64,000 bases of DNA. Origin: Longimicrobiales bacterium (lineage in GTDB: Bacteria; Gemmatimonadota; Gemmatimonadetes; Longimicrobiales; Gaopeijiaceae). The notes beneath the pieces were generated by a model. The model saw only the letters and a list, made by a program, of their open reading frames with translations. It made no database searches and was not told the DNA's origin. The stretch lies in assembly GCA_965248195.1 (NCBI GenBank), contig CBDFIQ010000001.1, positions 704,001-768,000 on the forward strand, in the 5' to 3' direction. Of the stretch, positions 6,990 through 27,234 are shown piece after piece. The position numbers and the translations under genes were made by a program. Position 1 is the first letter of the stretch, and every line of letters starts with the position of its first letter.

Positions 6990-7089
6990 GACACCTGCCC
7001 TCCCCACACCTGCCCTCCTCAGCCGAACGCACTGACCCATGACCCCTGCCCTCACCTGCCGGACCCACTGACCCAGGCACTGACCCATG
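6985..7089. repeat. Mosaic short repeats in divergent intergenic gap
   Basis: cccatgac(a/c)cctgccctc x2, cactgaccca x3, several cacctgcc. Confidence 0.7.
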
Positions 7090-7701: not shown

Positions 7702-7713
7702 TCCTTGCCCACA

Positions 7714-10137: not shown

Positions 10138-10501
10138 GGAGATCTCCGGTGTGCAACGCTTTGGGGAAGGATCAATTTTCCGGTTTGGTGCGGAGACCAA
10201 AGTAGATGCTCGGTGCTCCGGATGCGACAGCGATCCCGAGCGGATCAGTGTCATGAGCCTCATCGCGTTAATTCCACCGGGGTTGCCGGGCGCCCGTGTC
10301 CCCCTGCTGGGCGTCGTCGCCTTTGGCGTGATGGCGGACGCCTGCTATCTGCTGGGGCCTGCCGTCGAGATCGCTCTTGAGAAGCTTGCCCCCCCGATCA
10401 CTCTCGAACACGTTACGGTTCCCTCATCCCGCTTCTGCGGAGAGGGTGAACTACGTCCGCCACCGGCCGGAGACGGTCGCGAACGGTTTTTCCGACCTCA
10501 T

Positions 10502-10738
10502 ATGCCCGAAAGTATTATAGAGGGTCTCCGGATCCATATCGACCGCGACCTCTGTGTCAGCTTCGGGGACTGCATCGAAGCAGCTCCAGGCGTCTTCGAG
10601 TTCGACGACGAGGAAATCGCGGTCTTCGTGAGTGACGCGGGACCGATCAGTCGGGAAGGATTGATCGAGGCCTGCGCTTCTTGTCCCGTAGACGCACTGA
10701 CGGCATTCGACGAAGAGGGAGAGCCACTCGCTCCGTAG
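10502..10738 (+). CDS. Monocluster ferredoxin (probably 3Fe-4S)
   Basis: IDRDLCVSFGDC...AP.VF...ACASCPVDAL; second cluster Cys replaced by Phe. Confidence 0.85.
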   Translation: MPESIIEGLRIHIDRDLCVSFGDCIEAAPGVFEFDDEEIAVFVSDAGPISREGLIEACASCPVDALTAFDEEGEPLAP

Positions 10739-10784
10739 GAGCGTCGCCCGAGAGGGACCCGCTCCCGGGGCCCCTTGGAAAACC

Positions 10785-11720
10785 ATGAATCCCATGCGAA
10801 AGATTCGAACCTACCAGGACGTCACCCACGACACCGGCTCGGGCCTGCTCGAGCAGGTTGTGGACCAGCAACACCGCCTCGCCGACCGCCTCGCTCAGGT
10901 TCGGTCGGTCGTGGCCGTCGCCAGCGGTAAGGGGGGCGTAGGAAAGAGCGCCATCACGGCCAACCTGGCCGCTGCTCTCGCGGCCAGAGGGCTCGCCGTC
11001 GGCGCCGTCGACGCGGACCTCAATGGGCCGTCGCTAGCCCGCATGTTAGGCGTGTCCGGAGCCCGCTTGGCCGATCGGCCAAGCGGAGTGGAGCCGGCAC
11101 AAAGCCCGTCCGGCGTACGGGTCATGTCCATGGAGCTGCTCCAGCAGGAAGAGGATGCTCCCCTTCGCTGGAGAGAGCCCGAAATGGGAGGGTTCATCTG
11201 GCAAAGCACGCTCGAAACGGGGGTCCTCCGGGAGTTTCTGGGGGACGTCGAGTGGGGAGAACTGGACGTGCTCCTGGTCGACGTTCCGCCTGGGACGGAC
11301 AAGATTGGACGGCTCTTGGAGCTGGTCCCAGACGTCGATCAGATGCTCCTCGTAACCACCCCCTCCGAGACGTCTCGGTTCGTCGTTTCCAAGTCCGTTC
11401 GCATGGCTCGTGAGGCCGCGGTGGGGAAGGTCGCGCTGGTTGCGAACATGGCCGGCCATACTTGCCCGGAGTGCGGCCATGTGTCCGAACTCTTTACGGG
11501 TGACGGGGCCAACCGCCTCGAAGAGGAATCCGGCGTACCGCTTTGGGCGGAGATCCCCTTCGATCCACGGCTCGGTGCGGCCACGGACTCGGGCACCCCG
11601 CTCGTGATCACGGACCCCGATGCCCACTCGAGCAGGTCGATTCTGGCATTGGCCGACCGGGTCGAAGAGCATTTCGAGATCCGGGGTGACGGGGCGGTCG
11701 AGGTCGAGGAGGCGGGCTAA
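10785..11720 (+). CDS. Mrp/NBP35 (ApbC) Fe-S carrier ATPase
   Basis: SGKGGVGKS, DADLNGPS, DVPPGT, NM...CPEC. Confidence 0.9.
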   Translation: MNPMRKIRTYQDVTHDTGSGLLEQVVDQQHRLADRLAQVRSVVAVASGKGGVGKSAITANLAAALAARGLAVGAVDADLNGPSLARMLGVSGARLADRPSGVEPAQSPSGVRVMSMELLQQEEDAPLRWREPEMGGFIWQSTLETGVLREFLGDVEWGELDVLLVDVPPGTDKIGRLLELVPDVDQMLLVTTPSETSRFVVSKSVRMAREAAVGKVALVANMAGHTCPECGHVSELFTGDGANRLEEESGVPLWAEIPFDPRLGAATDSGTPLVITDPDAHSSRSILALADRVEEHFEIRGDGAVEVEEAG

Positions 11721-12220
11721 TGAAGTTTCTCTGTTTGGACTGCGACGACGTCATGGAGTTCGCCGAGCGGCAACTTCCTGGAGATGGAACGTTGGCCGCA
11801 GTATTTACATGCGGGTCGTGCGGACGGGAGATGGCGATGCTCACGAACCCGATGGAGACGCAGCTGGTCTCCAGCTTGGGCGTGAAGATCGGCGGACGAG
11901 AAGTCCCTACCCAGCCCATGGAACTGGCCCGGACGTCACTCGAGGGCGGCCGCGACGATGCGTTTGCCTTGTCCGAAGACATTCCCCTCGCTTCGGGCGA
12001 GGAGGCGACTCGAGGTGAGGGCGCGAGCGCCGGCGAGGCCACCGCGGCCCGCGTCGTGTGGACGTCCGAGGCCGCTGGCCGACTCGAGCGTGTGCCCAGC
12101 TTCGTCCGGGGCATGGTGAAGCGCATTTACACCGACTGGGCACGTGAGAAGGGCGTTTCGGAGATCACCCCCGACATCATGGACCGGGCTCGCACGGAGT
12201 TGGGCCTGGAAGGAATGTAG
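11720..12220 (+). CDS. Zn-ribbon (CxxC..CxxC) plus PCP_red-like domain protein
   Basis: CLDC/CGSC; WTSEAAGRLERVPSFVRGMVK...AREKG...IT..IMDRAR. Confidence 0.75.
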   Translation: MKFLCLDCDDVMEFAERQLPGDGTLAAVFTCGSCGREMAMLTNPMETQLVSSLGVKIGGREVPTQPMELARTSLEGGRDDAFALSEDIPLASGEEATRGEGASAGEATAARVVWTSEAAGRLERVPSFVRGMVKRIYTDWAREKGVSEITPDIMDRARTELGLEGM

Positions 12221-12222
12221 GC

Positions 12223-13230
12223 TTGTTCGGAGCCACAGAGCTTACCTTCACCTATCCCTCGGGCCGCCGGGGTCTAGGAAAGGTTTCTCTCGGAGGGGAC
12301 CCCGGCGACCGCGTGGTCGTGATGGGCCCAAATGGATCCGGCAAGAGCACCCTGCTTCGCCTCGTATCCACCGAGCTCCCTGCCCGCCCAGGATCGCTCA
12401 CCCTTTTCGGCCAAGCCTGCGACCCCCCTTCGAGAGCCCTCCGCAGAAGGATCGGCATCGTTCAGGATACTCCGGTCCACGCCGACGACCTCACGGGGAT
12501 GGAGAACGGCCTCCTGTTTGCCGAGCTCTACGGTTTGCTTAGGGCCGAGGCGGCGGGTGCCCTGGAGACCCTCTTCACCTCGCTCGGCCTGGACAGGGTG
12601 CTGGACGTCCCCACGAGGGAGTACTCGTACGGGATGAAGAAGAAGCTTCTCATCGCGGAGGCTTTGGTTCACGAACCCGAGATGCTCATCCTGGACGAGC
12701 CCGCGCTCGGCCTGGATCCACCTTCACGGGCAGCGCTCCATCGAATACTCGTGGAGCGCTCGGAGAAGGGTGTGTGCACGCTCGTCGCCACCAACGAACC
12801 CGCACTGGCCCAGGCACTGGCCACCACGGTGGTCCTTCTCCACGAAGGGGAGGTCGTGGCGCACGGCAGCCCCGCCGAGCTTCTGGCCAAGGTCGGCGGC
12901 GCCACGCGAATCGAAGTGCACGTCGCCGGTGCTCCGCTGGGGGTTCCCACGCCGGGCGACCCCACAGCCGCCAGCATGACGCCCGCCGACCTTACAACGA
13001 CCGCCCCTGCCTTTGCGGGGCTCCCAGCGGACATCGTGTCGATTCAACAACTGCCCGGGCGGATCATCGCCGAGAGCAGATCGGGCCCCGATGTCCTCCC
13101 GCAGCTGGTCGGCGCGGTCCTCGGCGCGGGGCTGAAGATCGAGCGGATCACACTACGTGAACCCGATCTCACGGACGTGTTTACACTTTTCACCGGCCAG
13201 GCCATGGGCCCGGAAAAGGAGAACGCGTGA
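12223..13230 (+). CDS. ABC transporter ATP-binding protein (ABC-2/exporter type)
   Basis: GPNGSGKST, YSYGMKKK signature, LILDEP. Confidence 0.9.
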   Translation: MFGATELTFTYPSGRRGLGKVSLGGDPGDRVVVMGPNGSGKSTLLRLVSTELPARPGSLTLFGQACDPPSRALRRRIGIVQDTPVHADDLTGMENGLLFAELYGLLRAEAAGALETLFTSLGLDRVLDVPTREYSYGMKKKLLIAEALVHEPEMLILDEPALGLDPPSRAALHRILVERSEKGVCTLVATNEPALAQALATTVVLLHEGEVVAHGSPAELLAKVGGATRIEVHVAGAPLGVPTPGDPTAASMTPADLTTTAPAFAGLPADIVSIQQLPGRIIAESRSGPDVLPQLVGAVLGAGLKIERITLREPDLTDVFTLFTGQAMGPEKENA

Positions 13231-13940
13231 CCGTCGCGGTGTTGAGGACGGAGTGGCTCACTGCCCTTCGGCGCCGGCGCCTCCTTCTGTTCAATATCCT
13301 GATTCCCCTCACGTTCGTGGCCACCATCGCGCTCAGCCCGGCGCCAGCCGTGCACGCCGCGGCCGTCTTCACCGTGCTCTTCGTGCTCTTCGGCACGTTC
13401 GGCTCGAGCATACCTCTGATCCGCGACGGTGAATCGGGGCTTCTCCGGCGTTACGTGCTGACGGGAGTCCACCCCGGTGGTCTCCTTCTTCAGCGCATAT
13501 TCGCCGCCGCCGCGCTCGACCTGGTCGAGCTGGCGCCGTCGGTGTTGGTGATCGTCACGGCGAGGGGGAGTTCGGCTTCTCAGTTTGCCATCGTCGTGCC
13601 GGCGATGATACTCGGGCTGCTCGCGGCGAACGCGCTCGGCGCGATCACCGCCGCCCTGGCCAAATCAGTCGCCGAAGGAGCTCTCTTCTCGGCCGTGTCC
13701 GCCCTTCTGCTCCTGCATTGGGCGGGGACGTTCCGTTCTCCCGTTCCTGAAACATGGCAAGCCACGGTGGAGGCGTGGAATCCCTTCCGCCCTCTCCATG
13801 AGAGTTTGCTCGCAGCCGCAGGCGCGGGCGGGCCCGACTTCGACCCGGCGCTGCTCACACCTCCCGTCGGAGCCACGCTCGTGGTGATGCTCCTGATTAC
13901 CGCCGCCGGCCGCTACGCCATAGGGCTCGGCGGCCGATGA
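13227..13940 (+). CDS. ABC-2 type permease
   Basis: About six hydrophobic segments; GTGA overlap with the ATPase gene. Confidence 0.75.
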   Translation: MTVAVLRTEWLTALRRRRLLLFNILIPLTFVATIALSPAPAVHAAAVFTVLFVLFGTFGSSIPLIRDGESGLLRRYVLTGVHPGGLLLQRIFAAAALDLVELAPSVLVIVTARGSSASQFAIVVPAMILGLLAANALGAITAALAKSVAEGALFSAVSALLLLHWAGTFRSPVPETWQATVEAWNPFRPLHESLLAAAGAGGPDFDPALLTPPVGATLVVMLLITAAGRYAIGLGGR

Positions 13941-13973
13941 GATCCGCCGGCCCGGCCGTTTCTCGCCCGTTTA

Positions 13974-14003
13974 TTGACAGCCCCGAGAAGGGTCGGGTAT
14001 ACT
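13974..14003 (+). promoter_or_regulatory. Sigma70-type promoter
   Basis: TTGACA-N18-TATACT upstream of the USP/respiratory operon. Confidence 0.7.
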
Positions 14004-14378
14004 CACTTCGCGCACCATGCACCATTTGGAACAAGCGCCATTTGATAGGGTGCCGAGGACCGTGCTTTCATTGATCCGAACGCTACGCCTGCGAGCTCGA
14101 AACTCGCCGTCGAGAGCCCTGGTTCAGAGGGGGTCGATCATAGAGATTAGCAGTCTGGTCGTGCTTTGTACGGCTCTCGTTCGCAGGGGGTGACCGGTAA
14201 CCCTTCTGCGCACTGAAATGATGTCAACCGCTGCACGCATCTAGACCGAACCAGATCGTACCCGGATGCCCTTCCGGTTTCGAAGTCGGAGCCCCGCCAC
14301 GCCCGGGGGGGCGGGGGGCGTTTGTGCGATCGGTACGCGAAGGGTGCCAGATAATCAGGGCCTAGGCCCGAGGTGCTT

Positions 14379-16529
14379 ATGTACCGTGAAGTTCTCGTAC
14401 CCGTCGATAACTCCGATAATTCACATTGGGCCGTCGACCGCGCCATCGAACTCTGTAGGCGCTCCGAGGGGCGAATCACCGGCAATCATGTGTACGCGGC
14501 GCGCCTCCACGATGTGCGGTTCCGCCAATTGGAGACAGGACTTCCCGCCCAGTTCCAGACCGCGAAAGAAATCAAGCGGCAGCGGAAGGTTCACGACAAG
14601 CTGATCGAAAAAGGCCTCCAGCTCATCTCGGATTCCTTTCTCGATCAGACCGCCATCAGTTGTGATGCGGCGGGCGTACCGCTGACCCGGCAGCTCCTCG
14701 AGGGCATCAACTATGAGGAGGTGTCTCGGGAGGCCAACCGAGGGGGCGGCCGCCTTCCCAGTTTGATCGGCTTCGATCCGAACATCGCGGACAAGTACGA
14801 CGGCGGTGACAAAGTCCGTAGCGACGTCATCGTGGACGAGGACGGGCGGATCATCGCAGAGGACGAGGAGCAGGATGAGAAGGTCGCGGGGTCGAGTGGT
14901 CGCGACTATGACCTCCTCGCCATCGGTGCTCATGGGATCGGCAAGCAACCCTACTCACAGTTGGGCGGGATGGTCTCGCGGGTCATCCGCCAGGTCGAAA
15001 AGGACACCCTGATCGTCAGGAACGATCGCGCACTGGAAGGCGGTGACTGGATTATCTGTGTCGACGGTTCCTCGTACTCGTACAAGGCCATGCGGCATGC
15101 ATTGGAGATGGCCAAGGAGTTCGGGGCGAAGCTTTATGTGTGCTCGGCCTTCGATGTGGAATACCACCACGCCGTGTTCGGGAATATCAAGGACATTCTC
15201 TCCGTGCAGGCCTCGAAGGTCTTCAAGTTCGAGGAGCAGGAAGAGCTCCATAACAACATCATCGACAAGGGTCTTCTGAAGCTCGCACAGGCCAATCTCA
15301 AGCGCGCCGAGGTGATGGCGCGGGAGTTCCCCGAGGTCCCCGTCGAGACGCAGATCCTCATCGGTAAACCCTTCCAGTGCATCCTTCAGTGGATCGAGGA
15401 GATCGATCCGAGCCTTGTGATCCTCGCACGCCACGGGGGGCACCGGATCGAGGGTACCGACATGGGATCTCAGGCGGACAACCTGTGCCGCCTCTCACCC
15501 ACGAACATCCTGCTCATCGGCACCACCGACGTTCGCCCGGACGACATCCCCTGGATCGAAGAGGACGGTGAGACCGGGCTCGAGTGGGCACCCGATGCCG
15601 AAGTCCGAATTCTTCGGGTCCCGCCGTTCGCGCTCGGGATCGCCCGCAAGGCCGTTGAAGAATACGTACTCGACAACTACGGCCCCGGAGCCAACGGCAC
15701 GTACCGGGAAGAGGCGATCGTGCGGGCGGCCTCGAACGGATCCTCGTCGAACGGACCGTCGGCCGACAGTGATGGGGCGACCCTCTCCGAAGCCGAGTCC
15801 GACACCAACGGAGTGGATACGGGCGCTTCGGTGCCCCCGCTCGGCGCGGGCGGCCTGCCGATGGTCACGGGCGAGCGCCTCGACGAAGCCATCACCAAGC
15901 TGCTTCCGACCCACATGCAGTTGATCATGGGGATCGGCACTGCCGAGGAGCTCGCCCTCGCCGAAGTGAAGGCAGATGAGGCCATGAAGCGGACGCTGGT
16001 CAGCGGCCTGGATGCCGACCCCCAGCCGGACGTACCCATGATTTCCGCCACCTGCCCCTACAGCGGCCATCCGCTCATGCGTGAACGGACCGCGGACGAC
16101 CCGGTCGAGTGGACCCAGGAGGCCTTCGAGCGACTCAAGCTGGTGCCGTTGATCGCGAGGCCACTTGCCCGCAACACGGTGGAGCGATTCGCCCGTGAGA
16201 ACGAATTCTTTAGAGTCACCACGCCTGTGATGGATGAGAACAAGCAGGCCATGATCGAGGCCGACGAGTTCGACATGGACACCATGTTGGTCATGTTCCG
16301 GGAACTCCAGACCAAGCAGATCAAAGCGACAGCCGAGGGCGTCGACGGTATGACTCCCGAGATGCGCAAGTTCATCGACGAGGCCAAGGCCAGCGGCGTG
16401 ACCCGCTGCCCGATTCGGGACGTGGCCGAGGCCGCCGACGACTGCCCGGTGGACTTCAAGACCGTCTCACCGGAGGACGCAAAGGCCGCGATCAAGCAAT
16501 TCATGGACAAGGAACCCAGCGAAGCGTGA
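14379..16529 (+). CDS. Tandem universal stress protein domains plus two PCP_red-like domains
   Basis: VLVPVDNS and ICVDGS USP starts, GAHG/ARHG; WAPDAEVRILRVPPF and WTQEAFERLKLVPLIAR; GAGGT RBS. Confidence 0.8.
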   Translation: MYREVLVPVDNSDNSHWAVDRAIELCRRSEGRITGNHVYAARLHDVRFRQLETGLPAQFQTAKEIKRQRKVHDKLIEKGLQLISDSFLDQTAISCDAAGVPLTRQLLEGINYEEVSREANRGGGRLPSLIGFDPNIADKYDGGDKVRSDVIVDEDGRIIAEDEEQDEKVAGSSGRDYDLLAIGAHGIGKQPYSQLGGMVSRVIRQVEKDTLIVRNDRALEGGDWIICVDGSSYSYKAMRHALEMAKEFGAKLYVCSAFDVEYHHAVFGNIKDILSVQASKVFKFEEQEELHNNIIDKGLLKLAQANLKRAEVMAREFPEVPVETQILIGKPFQCILQWIEEIDPSLVILARHGGHRIEGTDMGSQADNLCRLSPTNILLIGTTDVRPDDIPWIEEDGETGLEWAPDAEVRILRVPPFALGIARKAVEEYVLDNYGPGANGTYREEAIVRAASNGSSSNGPSADSDGATLSEAESDTNGVDTGASVPPLGAGGLPMVTGERLDEAITKLLPTHMQLIMGIGTAEELALAEVKADEAMKRTLVSGLDADPQPDVPMISATCPYSGHPLMRERTADDPVEWTQEAFERLKLVPLIARPLARNTVERFARENEFFRVTTPVMDENKQAMIEADEFDMDTMLVMFRELQTKQIKATAEGVDGMTPEMRKFIDEAKASGVTRCPIRDVAEAADDCPVDFKTVSPEDAKAAIKQFMDKEPSEA

Positions 16530-17959
16530 GCAGCACAACCGATCTCAGGTCCTCCTCCTCGGCAACTCTGGCGCCTCCCGCTCCGGGGCGGCTCGAGACG
16601 GTGTCGCCGAGCGGTAGGTGTGGTCCCTACACTCCGCATATCGTAGCGTGGAACCTCACGAAACGATGCAACCTGGCGTGCGCGCACTGTTATATCTCGG
16701 CGGGTTCCTGGCATGCGGCCGACGATGAGCTTTCAACGGACGAGTGCCTGCGCATCCTCGATGAGATTCTCGACGTGAATCCCCACCCCATGCTGATCCT
16801 CACGGGGGGGGAGCCCCTATTGCGGGACGACCTGGAAACCCTGGCGGAGCGAGCCTCGACGCGGGGCGCCACAGTCGTGGTCGGCACGAATGGGACGCGT
16901 CTGACCGACCAGCGCATCGGCTCTCTGTTGGAGGCCGGTGTCAAGGGTGTCGCCGTCAGCATCGACTCGCTCCGTCCCGAGTATCATGACCGCTTCCGGC
17001 ACGGTGGGGGTGCACTCACGGACACGATGGCGGCTGTCGAGCGCTGCTCCGCTCGTAGGCTCGATTTCGTTATTCAGACGACAGTCACGTCCGGCAATCG
17101 GCACGAGATCGCAGATTTGGCTCGCTGGTCGGCCGAAGCGGGAGCCGTTTCCTTCAACGTCTACTTCGTGGTCCCGACTGGGCGCGCAGAGCATATGCAG
17201 GGCATGAGTCCTGAGGAGAACGACGACGTTCTGCGTGAGCTCGTCGAGCTGGAGGGAACGTATCGCGGTCGCATGATGGTCCGCTCGAAGTGCCAACCCC
17301 AAATCATGCGGCACGTGGTCCAGGGCGATCCGGAGTCTCCCCTGCTGAACTACGAGACTCGCTGTCCATGTGGTGTCCACTACGTGCGCATCACGCCCGA
17401 GGGCAAGGTCACCCCGTGTCCTTACATGCCCGTGGTCGCGGGTGACCTGTTGACGCAGAGCTTTCAGGAGATCTGGGAGTCGTCGCCCGTCTTCACCCAG
17501 CTCAGGTCGGGGGAGCTCGGTGGGCGGTGCGGACTATGCGAATATCGGGAGGTGTGCGGAGGATGCCGCGCCCGCGCCTATGCCGACAGCGGCGACTTCA
17601 TGGGTCCGGATGACTCCTGCGCCTATGAGCCATCGGGAGAGACACCCCTCATTGTGTCTCGCCAATCAGTCTCCTACGGACGGTCAGGCCCGGGTGGGCC
17701 ATTGGTCGCCGACGGCGGCGCGGCCTCCACCGAGCAACCCGCATCGGTCGCACTGGAGTGGTCCCCGGAAGCCCTCGCCCGTATCGACGGCGTACCGAGC
17801 TTCGTTCGGGGGGTGGTCATGGCAAGGGTCGAGAAGTTCGCCCATGACCGAGGGTACGCATGTGTGGATGTGGAAGTCATGGAGGAGGTACGTCGAAACC
17901 TCCCTGTGGATTTCTCCAAGAAACTTCCGTTCTTCTTGGGAAGAGGGGGAACGGCATGA
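16526..17959 (+). CDS. Radical SAM/SPASM protein (AhbC/AhbD/NirJ-like) with C-terminal PCP_red-like domain
   Basis: WNLTKRCNLACAHC, TGGEPLLR, CPCG...PCPY...CGLC....VCGGCRARA. Confidence 0.85.
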   Translation: MSSTTDLRSSSSATLAPPAPGRLETVSPSGRCGPYTPHIVAWNLTKRCNLACAHCYISAGSWHAADDELSTDECLRILDEILDVNPHPMLILTGGEPLLRDDLETLAERASTRGATVVVGTNGTRLTDQRIGSLLEAGVKGVAVSIDSLRPEYHDRFRHGGGALTDTMAAVERCSARRLDFVIQTTVTSGNRHEIADLARWSAEAGAVSFNVYFVVPTGRAEHMQGMSPEENDDVLRELVELEGTYRGRMMVRSKCQPQIMRHVVQGDPESPLLNYETRCPCGVHYVRITPEGKVTPCPYMPVVAGDLLTQSFQEIWESSPVFTQLRSGELGGRCGLCEYREVCGGCRARAYADSGDFMGPDDSCAYEPSGETPLIVSRQSVSYGRSGPGGPLVADGGAASTEQPASVALEWSPEALARIDGVPSFVRGVVMARVEKFAHDRGYACVDVEVMEEVRRNLPVDFSKKLPFFLGRGGTA

Positions 17960-19737
17960 GCTTGAAGCTCCTGGGGGTGATGGGCCTCTCCGCGCTGGCC
18001 ATTCACCTGTTCCCCGAGGTGGCCTGGGCGCAGGATATCGCCGGCCGAAGCTACGGGGACTTCCCCTTGGTCGGGGGGCGTGTGGCGGTCTGGGTCGCGG
18101 CGCAGGTCCACCTTCTCTTCGCGGCGTTCGTGCTCGGCGTGCCCATGTTCGCTGTGGTTGCCGAGGCCATCGGAATGTTCGGGGGGGACTCGAAGTACGA
18201 TAAGCTTGCGAAGGAGTTCACCCGGCTGTTGCTCGTGGCATACTCCGCCACGGCGATCTGGGGAGCGATCCTCTCCTTCCTCCTCATCACGATCTTCCCG
18301 AACCTCTGGATCTACCTTGCGGAGATCTTCGAGGTCTCCATGTGGATCTACGTGGGACTCTTCTTCTTCGAGTCCTTCACGCTCTACCTGTATTACTACG
18401 GCTGGGATCGCTGGAATCAGGGTCGGGCCAAGCTGGGCCACTGGACGTTGGGCATCTTGTTGAACGTCTTTGGCACGGCGGTGATGCTCATTGCCAACTC
18501 GTGGCTCACCTACATGATGAGCCCGCCGGCGGACGTGGGTCCCGACACCGCACCTGGTATGGTCCGAGTGTGGAGCGCCTTCGTGAACGCGACCTGGATG
18601 CCCATCAACATCCACCGGTTAATCGCCAACGTCGTGTTCGGTGGAGCGATCGTGGGCGCGTATGCGGCCTACCGCTTCCTGCTGGCCAGGACCGATGAAG
18701 AGCGCGCCCACTACGACTGGATGGGATACGTGGGAAACCTGATCGCGATCGGCGCGCTCATTGTCCTGCCCTTCGCCGGCTACTACCTCGGCCGAGAGCT
18801 CTACGAGTACAGCCCGCAGATGGGCAACACCCTGATGGGTGGCTTCATGAGCTGGCTCTGGATCATCCAGGCCTTCCTTATCGGGGTGCTCTTCCTGGCG
18901 GGCAACTACTACTTGTGGGTGGGAATGGGGCGGATTCCGGGGGCCGAGCGCTTCACCCCCTACACCAAGTACATGTTGTTCGTGCTCGTGGTGGGCGTGA
19001 TCGTGTGGGCGACGCCGCACACGATGATCGCCAACCGGGAAGAGATCGCCGCCATGGGCGGAACGTACCACCCGCTCCTGGGTGTCCTTGGTGTCATGAG
19101 CGCCAAGAACACGGCTGTGAACATCATGATCTTGACCACGTTCCTCTCGTTCCTGCTCTACGGGCGCGCGAACAACAACCCGACGGTTCCGTGGGCCAGG
19201 ACTGGGACGATGGTGCAGGCGGCTCTGTTCGTGATCTCCGCGCTCATTGTCGTGTTCTACGGGGTGTACGGCTACTTCGTCAGCGCGATCGTTCGCATCG
19301 GTTTCTCGGTTTATCAGGTCGTGGCGGTGCTCGCGACCATCATCGGCGTGGGCGCAATTCATGTGTTCATGATGCGGGGCGCGGAGTCGCGTGGTGCGAT
19401 CCGGTGGGGTCAGATGCCCCCCCGTTCCCAGTACGCGCTGTTCATCCTAGCCGTCACGTTCACATGGCTGATGGGTCTCATGGGCTTCGCCCGGAGCGGC
19501 ATCCGCCAGCACTGGCATGTATGGGAAGTCGTGCGGGACACGAGTGAATGGGCAGAGACGCCGGCGCTCGGGTACGCGGCCGTCGTGATCTCCGCCTGTG
19601 TGCTGATCTTCTTCGTCCTCGTGGCGTTCATTTTCTGGCTCGGTGGCTTGGCCGAGAAACCGTTGGTATCGCAGGCGAGCACGGACACCTCTCCGTCACC
19701 GGGAGGGCCGGAGTTCGCTCCTGCCGCGGGCGACTGA
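17956..19737 (+). CDS. Cytochrome bd oxidase subunit I-like membrane protein (divergent)
   Basis: QVHLLFAAFVLG, FFFES, IANSWL, NIHRLIA, IRQHWHV; about 14 TM segments. Confidence 0.8.
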   Translation: MSLKLLGVMGLSALAIHLFPEVAWAQDIAGRSYGDFPLVGGRVAVWVAAQVHLLFAAFVLGVPMFAVVAEAIGMFGGDSKYDKLAKEFTRLLLVAYSATAIWGAILSFLLITIFPNLWIYLAEIFEVSMWIYVGLFFFESFTLYLYYYGWDRWNQGRAKLGHWTLGILLNVFGTAVMLIANSWLTYMMSPPADVGPDTAPGMVRVWSAFVNATWMPINIHRLIANVVFGGAIVGAYAAYRFLLARTDEERAHYDWMGYVGNLIAIGALIVLPFAGYYLGRELYEYSPQMGNTLMGGFMSWLWIIQAFLIGVLFLAGNYYLWVGMGRIPGAERFTPYTKYMLFVLVVGVIVWATPHTMIANREEIAAMGGTYHPLLGVLGVMSAKNTAVNIMILTTFLSFLLYGRANNNPTVPWARTGTMVQAALFVISALIVVFYGVYGYFVSAIVRIGFSVYQVVAVLATIIGVGAIHVFMMRGAESRGAIRWGQMPPRSQYALFILAVTFTWLMGLMGFARSGIRQHWHVWEVVRDTSEWAETPALGYAAVVISACVLIFFVLVAFIFWLGGLAEKPLVSQASTDTSPSPGGPEFAPAAGD

Positions 19738-21266
19738 TGCAGGATTCGACGGTGGGCATACTGGCGTCGTTCGAGTACGTAGACTCGGCCGTGAACGCCA
19801 TCGGTGAGTTACGGGCGGCCGGCCTCAAGAAGATCACCGCTTACATGCCGTATCCCGAGGCTCAAATCGAAGAGGCGCTCGGGTACGATCAGAGTCCCGT
19901 CAGGGTGTGGGCGTTGGCGGGTGGGCTCTGCGGCGCTGCCGGTGGGTTCGCTCTCACGTCCTTTACCTCGATGGATTGGCCGTTGGTCACGGGTGGCAAG
20001 CCGATCCTTTCGATTCCCGCGTACGTGATCATCTCGTTCGAGATGATGGTGTTGTTCGGTGTGTTGTCTACCGTGATTGGGCTCTTCATCAACAGTCGCC
20101 TTCCTTATGTCAAGCCGATGGTCGTCTACGATCCGGAATTCAGCGCGGGCAAGTTCGGGGTCTACGTGACCGTGGCGGCGGATGGCCTCGACCGAGCCAG
20201 GGGCATCCTGAAGGGTCAGGACCCCGCTGAAATCCGGGAAGATCCGGTGGGGGTAGCCCATGCGCCGCCAGGAATCGACTTAGGACCTGAAATTCAGGAA
20301 GAGCCGGTGGGGGTGGCGCCGCCAGGATTCGAATTAGGATCTGCAATTCCGGAAGATCTGGTGGAGGGGGCCCATACGCCGCCAGGATTCGAATTAGGAT
20401 CTGAAATTCGGGAAGATCCGGTGGGGGTGGCCCATGCGTTGTCAGGATCCGACTCAGGATACGAGTCTCGCTCGATGCTGTTGGAAAACCTGAAGATTTT
20501 CGCGGTCGTGATCGGAACGCTTGCCACCTTCACGCTCGTGGCCAATTCCATTCCGCAGGTACAGTCAGAGGTGCCCGTGGACCTCAGCTTCGGCGCCAAC
20601 GTTAGCGCCGATGAGCTGATGTCGTCCGGGGAGACCCTCTTCACCGGGGCCGGCGGCTGTCTAGCCTGTCACGGGTTGGGCACGAGGGCTCCGAACCTTC
20701 TCACCGACCACGCCGGCACGGGCACGATCGGCGTCCGGTGCACGAATCGCGTGCCCGGTGAGGACTGCAAGGCATACCTTTACAGCTCGATGGTGGACCC
20801 GGGCGCCTACCTCGTGGAGGACTTCGAACCGATCATGCCCGACATGCGTCGCTCTCTCTCGAACCAGCAGATCTGGGCGCTCGTGGCCTACTTGCAGTCC
20901 GTGGGGGGCGTGGTGACCGTAACGGGTGCAGACATCGGTGTTGGCGACGATGGCTCGAGCGTGGCAGGAGCCCCGACCGCAGGGGCGCCTGCGACCGCCT
21001 CTGCGGATCCCGTCGAGATCATGCGCGCCAACGCGTGCCTCGGTTGCCACGTCCTCGCCGGAGAGGGAACAGAGATGGGTCCCCCGTTCGACGGGATGGG
21101 CGCGCGCGTGGACGCCGACTATATACGAGAATCGATTCTGGAGCCGGCGGCCGGCGCATCAGAGGGCTTCGAGACATTCTTAGGCGCAATGCCTCCGATT
21201 TTCGGCAGCCAGCTCACTGGGAGTCAGTTGGAAGCCGTCGTGCAGTTCCTGGTAAGCCAACGCTAA
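19737..21266 (+). CDS. DUF3341 (ActD-like) fused to membrane-anchored diheme cytochrome c
   Basis: YMPYP, DWPLVTGGKP, FEMMVLF, FSAGKFG; CLACH and CLGCH with downstream MP ligands. Confidence 0.8.
   Translation: MQDSTVGILASFEYVDSAVNAIGELRAAGLKKITAYMPYPEAQIEEALGYDQSPVRVWALAGGLCGAAGGFALTSFTSMDWPLVTGGKPILSIPAYVIISFEMMVLFGVLSTVIGLFINSRLPYVKPMVVYDPEFSAGKFGVYVTVAADGLDRARGILKGQDPAEIREDPVGVAHAPPGIDLGPEIQEEPVGVAPPGFELGSAIPEDLVEGAHTPPGFELGSEIREDPVGVAHALSGSDSGYESRSMLLENLKIFAVVIGTLATFTLVANSIPQVQSEVPVDLSFGANVSADELMSSGETLFTGAGGCLACHGLGTRAPNLLTDHAGTGTIGVRCTNRVPGEDCKAYLYSSMVDPGAYLVEDFEPIMPDMRRSLSNQQIWALVAYLQSVGGVVTVTGADIGVGDDGSSVAGAPTAGAPATASADPVEIMRANACLGCHVLAGEGTEMGPPFDGMGARVDADYIRESILEPAAGASEGFETFLGAMPPIFGSQLTGSQLEAVVQFLVSQR
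20227..20460. repeat. Four imperfect 54-60 bp tandem repeats in the ActD-cytochrome c linker
   Basis: Unit ~ctgaaat(c/t)cgggaagatccggtgggggt(a/g)gcccatgcgccgccagga(a/t)tcga...; protein EIREDPVGVAHAPPG.DLG. Confidence 0.9.
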
Positions 21267-21285
21267 GGGGAGGCGAGAAACAGTG

Positions 21286-22092
21286 ATGGGCAAGCACTTG
21301 AAGCATCCCTTCGGCCAGGCGGTCCTGGTCCTCGTGGTTTCTTACCTCTTGTTGGATTACGGAATCGCGTACATCTCGCCTTTGATCGGAATCACGAGCG
21401 ATCCGGTCCCGATCCCGAATTCCGTGCTGCTTCAGTATCTCATCACCGTAGGCGTGGGGATCCTCCTCTGGGTCAGCGACAACGATGCCCGCTGGGCTGA
21501 GTTCAAGGCGCCGATGCATCGCGTGATGGTGGACCCGGACCGGAAGACGGCTCGGAATTCGCTCATGGTGCTGGTGCCGATCCTCGTGGCGTTCGCGACC
21601 TTCAATCAGGTGAAACCCTCCGTGGCAGCGCCTGTGACCCTGCGCTCGATTCACCCGTCAGCTCCGGGCCAGTTCGACTTCCAGGGGACGACCGTGGAGC
21701 TCGCCGGCCTGGAGAATCCCTTGCGCTCGCGGGGCTCCCTGGAGGAGCACTACGAAGAAGGGAAGCGCGTCTACTATGAGAACTGTCTGGGCTGTCATGG
21801 TGACGGCCTGAACGGCCAGGGGCATTACGCGCATGGATTCAACCCTGCCCCCTTGAGCTTCCAGGACGTCGGCACCATCGCGCAGCTCGTCGAAAGCTTC
21901 GTTTTCTGGCGGATCGCGAAGGGGGGTCCCGGGCTCCCCACGGAGGGGGCCCCGTGGAACTCGGCCATGCCGGCATGGGAGGACTTCCTCACCGAAGATG
22001 AGATCTGGTCCGTGATCATCTTCTTGTATGACCAGACCGGTCACGAGCCGCGCACGTTTGAAGAGGAAGCCGGGGAAGGGGAGGCGGAATGA
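21286..22092 (+). CDS. Membrane-bound monoheme cytochrome c
   Basis: Three N-terminal TMs, CLGCH, SAMPAW. Confidence 0.85.
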   Translation: MGKHLKHPFGQAVLVLVVSYLLLDYGIAYISPLIGITSDPVPIPNSVLLQYLITVGVGILLWVSDNDARWAEFKAPMHRVMVDPDRKTARNSLMVLVPILVAFATFNQVKPSVAAPVTLRSIHPSAPGQFDFQGTTVELAGLENPLRSRGSLEEHYEEGKRVYYENCLGCHGDGLNGQGHYAHGFNPAPLSFQDVGTIAQLVESFVFWRIAKGGPGLPTEGAPWNSAMPAWEDFLTEDEIWSVIIFLYDQTGHEPRTFEEEAGEGEAE

Positions 22093-23717
22093 GTTTTTCC
22101 GGTGTTCCCAAGTGGGCGCCCCTGGCCGTTTTGTTCGCTGCGGCGTCGGCATTGGCCGTGGGCGGCTGTGGAGATGGAGGAGGAGGAGGAGGCGTGGGCA
22201 ACCTGAGCGCGCAGGACGGCGACGATCTCGGCCAGGTCACCTATGACCGTTGGTGTGCGGGCTGCCACGGTGTGGACGGGACCGGCGACGGCCCCGGAGC
22301 CGGTTACATGCTTCCGCGGCCCCGGGATTTCACCCAGGCGCTGTATCAGATTCGTACGACGGCCAGCGGCGAGCTCCCGACGGATGAGGATATACTCGCC
22401 ATCATAGACCAGGGGATGCCGGGCACGACGATGCCTGGGTGGGAGGATCTTCTTTCGAACGACGAGAGAGACTCGCTGGTCCAGTATCTCAAGACGTTCT
22501 CTCGCTTCTTCTCTCCCGATGAGGTGCCGCAGCCGCTCGAGTTCGGTCGCGCCACCCGGTCGAATGCGGACGTGCTCGCTGAAGGTGAGCGGCTGTTCCG
22601 TGAAGTAGCAGATTGCGCGGCGTGTCACGGGGAAGGGGGCCGAGGCGACGGAGAGTCCTCGCCGACGCTGGCTGATGACGGGGACTTTCCCGTTCGCGCG
22701 GCTGATCTGACTGAAAACTGGCTGTTCAACGGCGGCGGAGACGCCGAGGACATCTACCGTCGACTGTTGACGGGTCTGGACGGCACACCCATGCCGAGCT
22801 TGGCCGACGTCATCACGGCGGGTGTCATCACCAGCGATCAGCTCTGGGCCATCGCGCACTACGTTCGCAGTCTTGCTCCGGAGGACCCGCCGGGAATCAC
22901 CGAGGTGGTCCGGGGCGTCCTCTTCGAGGACGTTCCGCTTCCCTCCTCGGTCGGCGACGAGGCGTGGGATGCCGTCGAGCGCGCGTACCTCCCGCTCGTT
23001 GGACAGATCATTGTGATGCCGCGCTGGTTCGACCCCCGGGTGGACGGCGTTTGGGTGCAGGCCGCGCATGACGGAGAAACGGTGGCCGTGCGCGTTACCT
23101 GGAGCGACCCCAACAACAGCCCCGATCCTCTGTGGGCGGACTGGAAGTCCTTGGTGACCTCGCTCATGCAGCCGAAAGAGGGCGACCCACCGGATGAAGG
23201 GCCGACGCCCGATCAACTCGTTGTCCAGTTCCCGATGCAGATGCCGGAAGGGATGGAGCTGCCTTTTTTCCTGGGCGGAGACAACCGCCGTCCGGTGTAT
23301 CTGTGGCAGTGGCGAAGTGACGGTGATGGCGCACTCGAAGGCGAGGCCCGCGGCATCGGGACCGAGGCCTTCCAATCGGAGGGGCTAGACCTTACCGTAG
23401 ACGCCTCACATGCCGACGGCCAATGGCGGGTCATGTTCACGAGGCCGCTCGTCACGGAGAACGAAGGCGACCTCGATTTCGTGATTGGTGAGGCCATTCC
23501 GATGGCCTTGTTCGCCTGGGATGGAGACAACGGGGAATCAGGCACCAGAGGTGCGGTCAGCTCCTGGTACTTCTTGTTCCTCGAGGACGCCACTCCAGCA
23601 ACTGTATTTGTAGCCCCCGCTTTGGCTATGATGTTGACGGCCGCGTTGGGGTTCTTGGTGGTAGGCCGCGCCCAGAAGAGGGAGAGGGAGGGCGGTGAAG
23701 TAGAAAGAGAGCGGTGA
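22089..23717 (+). CDS. Diheme cytochrome c lipoprotein with EB_dh-like (heme b DOMON) domain and C-terminal TM
   Basis: Lipobox VGGC; CAGCH, CAACH, PRPRDF, GTTMP/GTPMP; WSD, GQWRVMFTRPL, AWDG. Confidence 0.85.
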   Translation: MSFSGVPKWAPLAVLFAAASALAVGGCGDGGGGGGVGNLSAQDGDDLGQVTYDRWCAGCHGVDGTGDGPGAGYMLPRPRDFTQALYQIRTTASGELPTDEDILAIIDQGMPGTTMPGWEDLLSNDERDSLVQYLKTFSRFFSPDEVPQPLEFGRATRSNADVLAEGERLFREVADCAACHGEGGRGDGESSPTLADDGDFPVRAADLTENWLFNGGGDAEDIYRRLLTGLDGTPMPSLADVITAGVITSDQLWAIAHYVRSLAPEDPPGITEVVRGVLFEDVPLPSSVGDEAWDAVERAYLPLVGQIIVMPRWFDPRVDGVWVQAAHDGETVAVRVTWSDPNNSPDPLWADWKSLVTSLMQPKEGDPPDEGPTPDQLVVQFPMQMPEGMELPFFLGGDNRRPVYLWQWRSDGDGALEGEARGIGTEAFQSEGLDLTVDASHADGQWRVMFTRPLVTENEGDLDFVIGEAIPMALFAWDGDNGESGTRGAVSSWYFLFLEDATPATVFVAPALAMMLTAALGFLVVGRAQKREREGGEVERER

Positions 23718-23751
23718 ATTAGAAAGAGAGACGGTGAAGTAGAAAGAGAGA
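23693..23751. repeat. 19-20 bp tandem repeat x3 spanning the stop codon
   Basis: cggtgaa(g/t)tagaaagagag(a) x3. Confidence 0.85.
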
Positions 23752-23804: not shown

Positions 23805-24650
23805 ATGTCGGATCGATTTGAATTGCGCGGGGTCGTCGCGCCCACACTCATGCTGCTGGTCATGGCCGGCTGCGGTGGCGGAGACGGAGGTGGCGCCTCC
23901 GGTGGCGCCGGAGGCGGTGCCGCCGTGGAAAACCCGGTGGATGCGGCCACGGCCGGCAACATCGCGGGCTCCATCGTCTTCGAGGGAGACGCGCCCAGCA
24001 TGGACGTCATCAACATGGGCAGCGAGTCCGTGTGTGCGGACAAGCACGCGTCGTCGCCGATGATCGAGGAGGTTGTCGTCAACAGCAACGGTACTCTTGC
24101 CAACGTGTTCGTCTACGTGAGGGAAGGGCTGGAGAGCCTCCAGTTCCCAACGCCCGCAGCGGTACTGCTCGACCAGAATGGATGCGTCTACATTCCGCAC
24201 GTTTTGGGCGTGATGGCGGGCCAAGACATTACGATCAGGAACAGCGACGGGCTCTTGCACAACATCAACGCAACACCCGCCGAACAGCGCGGATTCAACA
24301 CCAGTCAGCCGGTCGCCATGGAGACCACGCGAAGCTTCGGGACGGCCGAGGTCATGGTTCCGCTGCGCTGTGACGTTCATGGTTGGATGAACGCTTATGT
24401 TGGCGTCCTCGATCATCCGTACCACTCCGTCTCGAACGGCAGTGGCGCCTTCGACCTGTCGACGCTGCCTCCGGGCGAGTACGTGATCGAAGCGTGGCAT
24501 GAGCGCTACGGAACTCAGACCCAGAACGTGACGGTGACCACCGGTGAGACCGCCGAGGTCACGTTCACGTTCAGCCCATCTATGGCCCAGAACGCCGTGG
24601 TGCCTCTCGGTACTCCGATCGACTTTCACGCAATCGCGGAAGCATCCTAA
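23805..24650 (+). CDS. Lipoprotein with cupredoxin-like and carboxypeptidase-regulatory-like domains
   Basis: Lipobox MAGC; LDQNGC, LHNIN, CDVHGWM type-1-Cu-like motif, AWHE. Confidence 0.75.
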   Translation: MSDRFELRGVVAPTLMLLVMAGCGGGDGGGASGGAGGGAAVENPVDAATAGNIAGSIVFEGDAPSMDVINMGSESVCADKHASSPMIEEVVVNSNGTLANVFVYVREGLESLQFPTPAAVLLDQNGCVYIPHVLGVMAGQDITIRNSDGLLHNINATPAEQRGFNTSQPVAMETTRSFGTAEVMVPLRCDVHGWMNAYVGVLDHPYHSVSNGSGAFDLSTLPPGEYVIEAWHERYGTQTQNVTVTTGETAEVTFTFSPSMAQNAVVPLGTPIDFHAIAEAS

Positions 24651-24748
24651 GTGGCTACGGCGTCTGCCGGTCCACTCCCTGAACGGACCGGCAGGGGCCT
24701 CTCCACTACAACTGCTAGACTCACACTCCAGCTCGGGAGACGAGTGGG

Positions 24749-25435
24749 ATGAGGTATTTTTCCTGGGTGATGCCGGACAACGTCGTGTCGACGTTCGGGC
24801 CAGCTCTAGACAACCTGTGGCTCGTGATCCTTTGGATCACGGGTATCATCTTCTTCGCCACGGAGATCGTCTTGTTGGTCTTCATGGTGAAGTACCGCCA
24901 CAAGGAGGGACGTAAGGCGGAGTACATCCACGGCAGCAATAAGGCCGAGATTATCTGGACGACGATCCCCTTCGTCATCGTCATGGGTTTGGCCTTCTAC
25001 TCGAAGGGCATCTGGGACGAGATCCGCGATCAAAGCCGCATCCCGGCCGACGCATATGAGATCAACATGATAGCCAGTCAGTTCGAGTGGAACGCCACCT
25101 ATGCGGGGGCCGACGGAGAGTTCGACACGTCGGACGATTTCGTTTCCCTAAACGCACTGCACATTCCGGTCGCTCAACCCGTTGTAGTCCAGTTGATGGC
25201 CCAAGACGTGATCCACTCGTTCTTTCTACCCGAGTTCCGGGTCAAGCAGGATGCGGTGCCCGGCCACGTCACCCCGGTCTGGTTCGAGGCGACACGGACC
25301 GGTGAGTTTACCCTGGCCTGCGCGGAGCTCTGCGGGCTCGGGCACTATAGGATGGGGGGGACGGTCATCGTCCATTCACAGGCTGATTTCCAAGATTGGC
25401 TCGCGGAGCAGCAAGCCGAAGCGGAGGATGACTGA
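24749..25435 (+). CDS. coxB: Cytochrome c oxidase subunit II (no fused cytochrome c)
   Basis: DVIHSF, KQDAVPG, CAELCGLGHYRM CuA motif. Confidence 0.95.
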   Translation: MRYFSWVMPDNVVSTFGPALDNLWLVILWITGIIFFATEIVLLVFMVKYRHKEGRKAEYIHGSNKAEIIWTTIPFVIVMGLAFYSKGIWDEIRDQSRIPADAYEINMIASQFEWNATYAGADGEFDTSDDFVSLNALHIPVAQPVVVQLMAQDVIHSFFLPEFRVKQDAVPGHVTPVWFEATRTGEFTLACAELCGLGHYRMGGTVIVHSQADFQDWLAEQQAEAEDD

Positions 25436-27231
25436 TGAGCACGACCACTGCGACGGAAACGCACGCCGGACCCGCTGAGCACCACGAGCTCGGCTTCATC
25501 CGGACGTACATTTTCTCTACCGATCACAAGATGATCGCGAGACAGTTCCTGTTCAGCGCGCTGCTGTTCCTGCTGCTGGGAGGATTGCTCGCGGTCATGG
25601 TTCGCTGGCAGCTCGGTTTCCCGGGACGACCCCTGCCCTCTTTCATAAGGGGTATCTTTCCGGACACCATGGCACCGGGCGGCATCATCCTACCGGAGTT
25701 CTACAATTCCCTGGTCACGATGCACGCCACTTTCATGGTGTTCTTCGCGCTCATGCCGCTCATGGCGGGGGTCTTCGGCAATCTCCTGATCCCGCTCCAG
25801 ATCGGTGCGGAGGACATGGCGTTCCCCCGGATCAACATGGCGTCCTTCTGGATCATGCCTGTCGCGGGATTCATCATGCTGGCGAGCTTCTTCGTCGAGG
25901 GAGGCGCCGCTGGAGCCGGTTGGACCTCCTATGCGCCGCTCAGCAGCTCGGGCGAGTGGACGGGCGTCTACATGGGCCAGATCCTCTGGCTGGTCTCTCT
26001 GATCGTGCTGGGCTTCTCCTCGATCCTGGGCGCTTTGAACTACGTCTCGACCGTGATCAACATGCGGGCGCCGGGGATGACGTGGTTCCGGATCCCGCTG
26101 GGCACGTGGTCGCTGTTCATCACCGCGTGGCTGCTTCTGTTGGCGATCCCGATTCTCACGGGCGGCCTGATTCTGCTCCTCTTCGATCAGACGCTCGGAA
26201 CGGCCTTCTTCCGCCCCGAGGGCAGCGGCGAGCCTCTCCTCTGGCAACACATTTTCTGGTTCTTCGGCCACCCCGAAGTGTACATCCTGATCCTTCCCGC
26301 GATGGGCTTCGTCTCCGAAGTGATCGCATGCCGGTCCCGGAAGCCGATCTTCGGCTACCACTCCATGGTGATCGCCTTGGTGTCCATCGCGTTCTTGTCA
26401 TGGGTCGTCTGGGGTCACCACATGTTCCAGAGCGGCATGAACCCGCTCCTCGGCATGACCTTCGTGGTGACGACGGTAGTGATCGCGGTCCCCTCGGCAA
26501 TCAAGGTATTCAACTGGTTGGGAACACTCTGGCGTGGGGACATCCACTTCGACGCGCCGCTCCTGCACGCGGTCGCGTTCGTGTCGCTCTTCATCATCGG
26601 AGGGCTGTCGGGGATGTTCATGGCCGCGGCTCCCGTCGACATCTACATCCACGACACGTACTTCATCGTGGCGCACCTCCACTACGTTCTGGTGGGTGGG
26701 AGCCTCTTCGGAATTTTCGCCGGGATTATCTTCTGGTATCCGAAGATGTTCGGCCGGATGATGCACGAGGGATGGGGCAAGGTGCACTTCGGGCTCTCGT
26801 TCCTCTTCTACAACCTGGCGTTCTTCCCGATGCACAATCTGGGTATACAGGGGATGATGCGCCGGATCTACGATCCCAACCAGTACGAGTTCCTACAGGG
26901 GCTACAGCCTCTGAATACCTTCATCTCGATCAGCATATTCCTCTTCGCGGCCACGCAGGTCATCTTCGCGTTCAACTTCCTGTGGAGCCTGCGCTACGGT
27001 AAGGTAGCCGGCAACAACCCCTGGAGGTCCAGCACGCTCTTGTGGACCACTCCATCTCCCCCGCCCCACGGCAACTTCCCGGAGATGCCCATCGTGTACC
27101 GCGGCCCATACGAGTACAGCCATCCTGACCGAGAGGAGGACTTCTGGCCTCAGGACGAGCCGCCCGAGATGAGCGAAGCGGGCGGACAGACGGTCGCATC
27201 CCCGACCCCCGAACCCGTTCCTGGAGACTGA
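25435..27231 (+). CDS. ctaD: Cytochrome c oxidase subunit I, A1 type
   Basis: TDHK, WFFGHPEVY, WGHH, VAHLHYV. Confidence 0.97.
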   Translation: MSTTTATETHAGPAEHHELGFIRTYIFSTDHKMIARQFLFSALLFLLLGGLLAVMVRWQLGFPGRPLPSFIRGIFPDTMAPGGIILPEFYNSLVTMHATFMVFFALMPLMAGVFGNLLIPLQIGAEDMAFPRINMASFWIMPVAGFIMLASFFVEGGAAGAGWTSYAPLSSSGEWTGVYMGQILWLVSLIVLGFSSILGALNYVSTVINMRAPGMTWFRIPLGTWSLFITAWLLLLAIPILTGGLILLLFDQTLGTAFFRPEGSGEPLLWQHIFWFFGHPEVYILILPAMGFVSEVIACRSRKPIFGYHSMVIALVSIAFLSWVVWGHHMFQSGMNPLLGMTFVVTTVVIAVPSAIKVFNWLGTLWRGDIHFDAPLLHAVAFVSLFIIGGLSGMFMAAAPVDIYIHDTYFIVAHLHYVLVGGSLFGIFAGIIFWYPKMFGRMMHEGWGKVHFGLSFLFYNLAFFPMHNLGIQGMMRRIYDPNQYEFLQGLQPLNTFISISIFLFAATQVIFAFNFLWSLRYGKVAGNNPWRSSTLLWTTPSPPPHGNFPEMPIVYRGPYEYSHPDREEDFWPQDEPPEMSEAGGQTVASPTPEPVPGD

Positions 27232-27234
27232 GGC

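Follow-up and report, generated by a model that had tools for sequence, protein, structure and literature searches.

A gene set with PCP_red domains, a tandem universal stress protein and an AhbD-related radical SAM enzyme as a possible haem tailoring and delivery kit for OR-N oxidases

Cytochrome bd-like complexes of the OR-N type have been put forward as the oxygen reductases of Nitrospira, Nitrospinota and Ca. Manganitrophus, lineages from which they have been published in three sources (PMC10839748, 10.1101/2021.11.15.468770, PMC6606698), the first of which describes their subunits and function as unconfirmed. The closest described gene sets, Nitrospira bd-like_3 and Manganitrophus TO_1, have a 14-helix CydA-like subunit and, after it, a pair of cytochrome c genes together with one for a cytochrome c/haem b (alt_NxrC-like) protein (PMC6606698, PMC3578206, 10.1101/2021.11.15.468770); the available portions of these papers present a membrane complex and do not mention a cytoplasmic module. 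Universal stress proteins (USPs) and bd-like oxidases are treated separately in PMC8115632. A matching cytochrome set lies in the window analysed here, a 64,000-nt stretch (contig CBDFIQ010000001.1, positions 704,001–768,000) of the Longimicrobiales assembly GCA_965248195.1 (genome G000; 4.86 Mb, 91.8% complete), whose relatives are Gemmatimonadota, Longimicrobiales being the closest. Unlike the published sets, this operon is also joined to coxBAC, and it is accompanied by genes for a ferredoxin, an Mrp-family ATPase, a zinc-ribbon protein with a C-terminal PCP_red domain (ZnPCP), a tandem USP and a radical S-adenosylmethionine (SAM) enzyme (Table 1; positions are those of the window). Our preferred reading, about as likely as not, is that this gene set, hereafter the module, tailors and delivers haem as a kit dedicated to OR-N oxidases. 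The module is not described in titles or abstracts of the literature searched, most subscription papers and bioRxiv supplements lying beyond that search. An initial annotation of the locus had proposed that these genes build or modify a haem for the downstream respiratory complex, with PCP_red as a shared docking or tetrapyrrole hand-off tag; domain matches, co-occurrence and the grouping of the enzyme with haem enzymes bear out part of that proposal, whereas the docking role is not established.

Module genes kept close company within Gemmatimonadota. Among the best 80 of 505 genome loci (denominators here and below being loci with room on the contig), the radical SAM gene followed the USP gene in 76/76, and an OR-N gene was present in 67/68, coxB in 57/57, Mrp and ZnPCP in 54/55 and the ferredoxin in 52/55. 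At the level of whole genomes (n = 301), USP and OR-N were each detected in 86 and together in 85, that is, in 85/87 genomes with either; the two exceptions (G176 and G116) are contig breaks. The expectation that the module genes travel together and with the bd-like gene was thus upheld. The genes first grouped together are genuine neighbours but form two units rather than one, ferredoxin–Mrp–ZnPCP–ABC-2 pair and USP–radical SAM–bd-like–cytochromes–periplasmic protein–coxBAC, separated by a 433-bp gap, and the ABC pair is optional. USP and radical SAM genes, and radical SAM and OR-N genes, overlap by 4 nt each; the ZnPCP start overlaps the Mrp stop, again by 4 nt in 56/61 loci. A second OR-N gene occurs in four module genomes, and the two inspected had no PCP_red genes within 14 kb of it, as would be expected if both were served by one kit.

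PCP_red (PF08369) is the helical domain of 45 residues at the C-terminus of BchB/ChlB (2KRU, 2L09, 2YNM, 2XDQ), which the module's domains resemble at E values of 1e-10 to 1e-7; here, by contrast, its fusion partners are a USP, a radical SAM enzyme and a zinc ribbon, and it is repeated up to six times per protein and occurs in non-phototrophs. All four segments quoted in the initial annotation were located in translated open reading frames (11720–12220; 14373–16529, two; 16526–17959), and PF08369 matched the three whole proteins with 50.6 (ZnPCP), 51.4 (radical SAM) and 52.9 bits (USP, over two stretches). The same four copies were the only matches in a genome-wide profile search of G000, three of them exceeding the 32.5-bit cut-off as single domains (Table 1). 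Copy 1 of the USP alone scored 22.3 bits (model positions 1–29 of 45), below the cut-off because an insertion interrupts the domain: alignment shows it to be complete but split, its third helix coming after some 58 low-complexity residues. A full-length profile comparison gave an hhalign probability of 98.6 (E 8.7e-16), and AlphaFold helices were placed at residues 407–413, 418–436 and 500–510 (numbered from 14373, the probable USP start being the ATG at 14382).

A chance match was ruled out, with three domains above the cut-off and PF08369 present in 34 of 36 long distant USP homologues picked from 150 listed matches, which carried one to six stretches each, many alongside rubredoxin-like inserts. 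A remnant of photosynthesis was likewise rejected: the nitrogenase/DPOR-type family PF00148 had 0 matches in G000, a genome 91.8% complete (the control, Synechococcus, being positive), in line with the lack of chlorophyll genes remarked on for the window. A histone H4 match to PCP_red (E 0.5–0.7) was not significant. Across the 301 genomes PF08369 was found in 103, comprising the 87 with USP or OR-N, 15 with high scores (67–80 bits), of which the two inspected look BchB-like by length and N-terminus, and G048. No description of the role or contacts of the BchB C-terminal domain was found in the literature searched, and the tetrapyrrole analogy is therefore conjectural.

The radical SAM enzyme shares with AhbD (TIGR04545) and NirJ2 (TIGR04055), its top NCBIfam matches, the CX3CX2C motif, an eight-cysteine SPASM motif and a neighbouring place in the tree, but it scores below the cut-offs of AhbD (276.1/500 bits), NirJ2 (288/500), TIGR04053 (259/395) and NirJ (TIGR04051, 169.8/515), bears a C-terminal PCP_red and is coupled to USP and OR-N. 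The AhbD SPASM motif as given in PMC10452713 (CX20-33CX17CX36-37CX2CX5CX2CX17-35C) was present in full at C256–C365 and in 44/45 full-length distant orthologues; it was not seen in PqqE, MftC, NirJ or TIGR04053 rows. The tree (37 rows) united the 13 PCP-type enzymes in one clade (support 97/98), which joined the AhbD/TIGR04053, NirJ2 and NirJ rows in a fork without firm order, PqqE, MftC and the Nif11 maturase standing on long branches outside this haem-enzyme group. The haem connection first suspected for these genes is supported by this placement. No nir genes were found among the neighbours scanned with Pfam. Among plasmids, 70 records matched the radical SAM enzyme distantly, at 37.5% identity or less. 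ESM Atlas hits were all under 0.9.

G000 encodes ferrochelatase, a ChdC-family gene overlapping ctaB (contig C2), and ctaA; AhbA/AhbB (PF17805) of the sirohaem-dependent (Ahb) pathway had 0 matches in this genome. The ChdC family (PF06778) was detected in 40/44 module genomes compared with 27/107 others (these 27 include the unpublished G153), and a supply of plain haem b by the module therefore looks redundant. Coprohaem is thus likely to be available and haem b already made, which makes a separate task for the enzyme more probable than a low-oxygen backup. Moreover, locus L090 holds a near-cut-off AhbD (499.4/500 bits) beside the PCP-type enzyme, and it is unlikely that both perform one function. 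Six loci of family f4 (G058:C54, G069:C73, G042:C4, G097:C113, G050:C13 and G030:C60) have a ChdC-family gene ~8–10 kb downstream of OR-N. AhbD-like genes of 438–457 bits occur in family f10 (L188–L192), in genomes where neither module nor PF06778 was found.

The USP model (mean pLDDT 81.1) has the tandem-USP fold of Rv2623 (Z 28.4, rmsd 2.7 Å, 255 aligned) and TTHA0350, from which it differs by two His-bearing inserts, the PCP_red repeats and a Cys-Pro tail. The two halves have homologous helical inserts, each containing a His pair at a spacing of 28 residues; these His (H46, H74, H265 and H293) were invariant in 88/88 USPs, R49 and R71 were kept in at least 90%, and the inserts were modelled as ordered (pLDDT about 84–98). 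No solved USP covered the inserts by sequence among the best stretches in the PDB. Three Cys-Pro motifs were present in 119/120 close homologues, 358/359 tail Cys being Cys-Pro, and similar lone motifs were seen in some distant USPs and in 4/50 ZnPCP linkers. The ATP-binding USP consensus, G-x2-G-x9-G-(S/T), was found in domain 1 of 53/88 homologues, whereas the window copy ends this stretch with Gly. Among haem regulatory motifs, Cys-Pro is the best known (PMC6356037). Judged from sequence, the USP is a candidate haem chaperone, its four invariant His and Cys-Pro motifs appearing better candidates for haem binding than PCP_red.

The ferredoxin, which probably supplies electrons to the radical SAM enzyme, presumably holds a single [3Fe-4S] cluster, by motif rules. 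Pfam agreed with the initial labels of ferredoxin, Mrp-family ATPase and ABC-2 pair. The further label of Mrp as an Fe-S carrier is insecure because the C-terminal CxxC, present in the window copy and 30/37 aligned homologues, is missing in 7. Like Mrp/ApbC carriers and the Thermococcus Mrp-type HypB, this protein is a deviant Walker A P-loop ATPase, but it falls short of the MrpORP (212.9/450 bits) and ApbC (157.5/348 bits) cut-offs and forms a distinct subfamily with its own N-terminal extension and a ~10-aa insert, both at the predicted interface with ZnPCP. That partner has four Cys invariant in 50/50 sequences and, in contrast to the partner of Thermococcus HypB, is not detectably HypA, its N-terminal half having no sequence match in Pfam or the PDB. 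A complex of Mrp dimer, ATP and ZnPCP was predicted with a score of 0.69, where the highest of three controls scored 0.00, passing a mark reached by 116/157 solved and 2/215 mismatched pairs, a calibration that is roughly valid for this case; runs agreed in at least 92% of contacts, with partner pLDDT of at least 76. Mrp is thereby predicted to bind ZnPCP mainly via the zinc ribbon (ZnPCP 1–86 on Mrp 5–28 and 92–154, of which ZnPCP 66–86 and Mrp 143–154 would be required for binding), although the pass may stem from likeness to HypA–HypB structures, notwithstanding the lack of a HypA match. Docking of PCP_red on Mrp, as BchB might dock on BchL, was rejected as the binding mode, the model placing only residues 128, 131, 132 and 135 of that domain at the interface; a general docking or hand-off role for PCP_red, as initially proposed, thus finds weak support.

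The presumed client, the bd-like subunit, has 14 hydrophobic segments and keeps the two haem-ligand His columns (His19 and His186) and Glu107 of canonical CydA (E. coli numbering). H52, the His19-equivalent, was invariant in the OR-N alignment. The subunit carries Tyr in the Glu99 column, and Glu is missing around the Glu445 column, where the alignment is loose. Both features given for OR-N1/N2 in 10.1101/2021.01.16.426971, 14 transmembrane helices and the His19-equivalent, were found, and on sequence the subunit fits that group; the single cydA-like gene of the operon fits the description of N2 in the same source. As to the respiratory complex served, the module is linked to OR-N and not to the adjacent aa3 oxidase: supply of haem a is unlikely, ctaA and ctaB lying elsewhere in G000. 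A further coxA, at 45–46% identity, was present in 5/5 module-less genomes tested. The protein encoded next to the bd-like subunit joins ActD to cytochrome c via about three imperfect ~20-aa repeats, and most of its relatives comprise the cytochrome half only (coverage about 0.52). Second OR-N operons (L176 and L177, from G056 and G123) encode a longer bd-like subunit (~660 aa) and have the periplasmic beta-sandwich gene in front.

Beyond the phylum, distant USP-PCP_red proteins bore source names from Nitrospinota, Ca. Manganitrophus, SAR324, Mariprofundaceae and Acidobacteriota, and radical SAM-PCP_red proteins were named from Nitrospira. A set of 80 distant metagenome loci (28–37% identity, neighbours judged within 10 kb), many of them Nitrospira-like, had the radical SAM gene in 52/80 (47/63 with room) and Mrp in 4/80. 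L149, L155 and L159 carried USP–Mrp–ZnPCP and L142 Mrp–ZnPCP with a four-PCP_red protein, while in L165–L167 the USP lay at most three genes ahead of a bd-like/Rieske/cytochrome b/bd-like array. In the Nitrospira-like loci, mpqE and a B12 radical SAM gene stood ahead of USP–radical SAM, and a CopD/DUF4149-like membrane gene came after the pair. The genes thus constitute an independent module that has been reshuffled among loci, and outside Gemmatimonadota its tie to OR-N rests on three loci together with the distribution published for OR-N (PMC10839748). Several further features accompany distant USPs. L134 (7320–9841) and similar loci have mpqE and the slr0320-like B12 radical SAM gene (437.5/775 bits) directly upstream of USP–radical SAM; a small coiled-coil and zinc-ribbon gene precedes the USP in L097 (1623–1910), L154 (9419–9691) and L141 (7084–7407); and two distant USP-PCP_red proteins, P0141 and P0147, have a long N-terminal extension, that of P0147 weakly resembling a PNPOx-like split barrel (23.8 bits, below cut-off), whose fold is capable of haem or FMN binding.

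How a dedicated kit might operate can be sketched. Coprohaem from the ferrochelatase/ChdC route would be the substrate of the radical SAM enzyme, reduced by the ferredoxin; the enzyme, related to AhbD, would tailor this coprohaem- or haem-type substrate. The USP would hold and carry the haem product in its two His–His helical hairpins, the Cys-Pro motifs serving as transient haem sites, while Mrp–ZnPCP would spend ATP either on loading the three Fe-S clusters of the enzyme or on hand-off to the membrane subunit, and PCP_red domains would be short interaction modules keeping these proteins together. Granted such a kit, a product other than plain haem b is slightly favoured. The fullest version, in which OR-N oxidases, presumed to be terminal oxidases in bacteria that oxidise nitrite or manganese, use a new haem type that this radical SAM clade makes from coprohaem, the USP is the first haem-chaperone USP, its four invariant His forming two porphyrin sites, and PCP_red is a general assembly module shared with DPOR, strikes us as rather unlikely. 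A defined accessory kit would name the genes to co-express for an active OR-N oxidase and make its cofactor directly testable; were the interpretation true, PF08369 would gain a role outside chlorophyll synthesis, the AhbD/NirJ group further chemistry, and the USP family a ligand carrier with named residues to mutate.

Several observations weigh against a dedicated haem kit. Co-occurrence within the phylum is largely that of one linked block inherited by kin, coxBAC included, and since the genes are linked and the kin non-independent, it shows block inheritance and not function. A counter-example, possibly a misbinned one, is G048: its divergent module sits on a contig of 9.6 kb, and the search found a canonical CydA but no OR-N. 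A bd-like gene lay within 10 kb in only 3/80 distant loci, two of them possibly from the same organism, and the radical SAM gene was missing from 16/63 with room. Cys-Pro motifs were counted in 120 closely related USPs and are lacking from many distant ones. Nor does the tree settle which haem enzyme is sister to the PCP-type clade (support 80/78), and PF06778 also includes chlorite dismutases, individual inspection having covered the G000 copy. Canonical haem d, finally, is not known to need a dedicated enzyme for its synthesis.

Foremost among other explanations is that the enzyme is a second, oxygen-independent haem b synthase equivalent to AhbD, backing up the peroxide-dependent ChdC at low oxygen and feeding all respiratory cytochromes with the other proteins as helpers. 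The full SPASM motif, a C-[AQ]-P-[HQ] motif common to the enzyme and AhbD, the NirJ2 and AhbD matches and the prevalence of the coprohaem route in module genomes all agree with such a synthase, the last haem step being taken by AhbD or ChdC (PMC7242693). It nevertheless seems improbable: the clade is separate from the AhbD rows, the enzyme adjoins an AhbD in L090, no USP or ZnPCP partner is described as needed by AhbD in the literature searched, and an all-purpose backup would have no need to accompany OR-N in 85/87 genomes. It is less probable again that the module modifies the OR-N protein itself, the radical SAM enzyme cross-linking it or attaching haem covalently, or equips it with a non-haem metal, Mrp–ZnPCP then acting like archaeal HypB–HypA and the USP His binding Cu or Fe. 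SPASM enzymes often modify peptides, yet the peptide maturases lay outside the haem-enzyme group; the T. kodakarensis Mrp-type HypB, a partner of HypA, is a PDB match of Mrp (3vx3/5aun, E 3e-23), and the Mrp CxxC is dispensable in some homologues, yet the N-terminal half of ZnPCP has no HypA match in the PDB; and the CopD/DUF4149-like gene of 48/80 distant loci, which with the Tyr at the Glu99 column of OR-N would suit such a role, has no place in the window's cluster.

That the USP-PCP_red protein is a haem- or redox-sensing regulator of the enzyme and operon, not a carrier, we regard as very unlikely. Its Cys-Pro motifs belong to the regulatory class named above, rubredoxin-like inserts recur in distant USPs, and N. 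marina USPs rise at low oxygen (PMC8115632); four invariant His in ordered inserts, however, suit a stable site, the protein has no DNA-binding domain, and its gene overlaps that of the enzyme, which points to stoichiometric production. Service to respiratory quinone synthesis, that is, of methyl-plastoquinone in Nitrospira, has hardly any likelihood in our estimation: the USP follows an mpqE-like gene in 33/80 distant loci (one scoring 402.9 against a cut-off of 335) and a B12 radical SAM gene occurs in 40/80, but this linkage is confined to Nitrospira-like loci, the Gemmatimonadota loci being tied to OR-N instead, and methyl-plastoquinone genes are reported only in Nitrospirota, with USP unmentioned (PMC11874023).

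Table 1. Features of the module and adjoining genes (window positions)
Feature	Position	Strand	Details
Ferredoxin, 78 aa	10502..10738	+	PF13370, 42.7 bits; C-x2-F-x2-C...CP
Mrp/NUBPL-family P-loop ATPase	10785..11720	+	PF10609, 233.8 bits
ZnPCP	11720..12220	+	N-terminal CxxC-x22-CxxC ribbon; C-terminal PCP_red
PCP_red of ZnPCP	12059..12193	+	53.1 bits
ABC-2 (DrrA-like) ATPase, optional	12223..13230	+	PF00005; in 30/80 loci
ABC-2 membrane subunit, optional	13227..13940	+	PF01061; in 24/55 loci with room
Sigma70-like promoter candidate for USP–radical SAM–OR-N–cox unit	13974..14003	+	11 of 12 matches
Tandem USP	14373..16529	+	Two His-bearing helical inserts; two PCP_red; three Cys-Pro motifs
PCP_red copy 1 of USP	15588..15902	+	Split by ~58-aa insertion
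PCP_red copy 2 of USP	16110..16244	+	41.1 bits
Radical SAM/SPASM enzyme	16526..17959	+	C-terminal PCP_red; overlaps USP and OR-N genes
PCP_red of radical SAM enzyme	17759..17893	+	54.9 bits
Cytochrome bd-like (OR-N type) subunit	17956..19737	+	Presumed client; PF01654 over N-terminal half
ActD domain + dihaem cytochrome c fusion	19737..21266	+	PF11821, PF00034; two CxxCH
Membrane-anchored monohaem cytochrome c	21283..22092	+	
Dihaem cytochrome c + EB_dh haem b domain	22089..23717	+	alt_NxrC-like
Periplasmic beta-sandwich protein, then coxB, coxA, coxC	23805..27891	+	aa3-type; linked neighbours

The strong promoter candidate ahead of the USP unit compares with 0.2 sites expected in shuffles, and a similar pattern lay at most 450 nt from the USP start in 55/75 loci; FNR and RpoN boxes were found in 0/75 upstream regions. 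The ~380 nt between this site and the USP start (14003–14382) show partial conservation among close relatives, and L006 has lost them; this interval had no Rfam match, and positions 10000–30000 held 0 RNA families. Upstream of the module, at 2844–10263, Pfam identified a cluster of sulfatase, phosphodiesterase-family and sulfotransferase genes.

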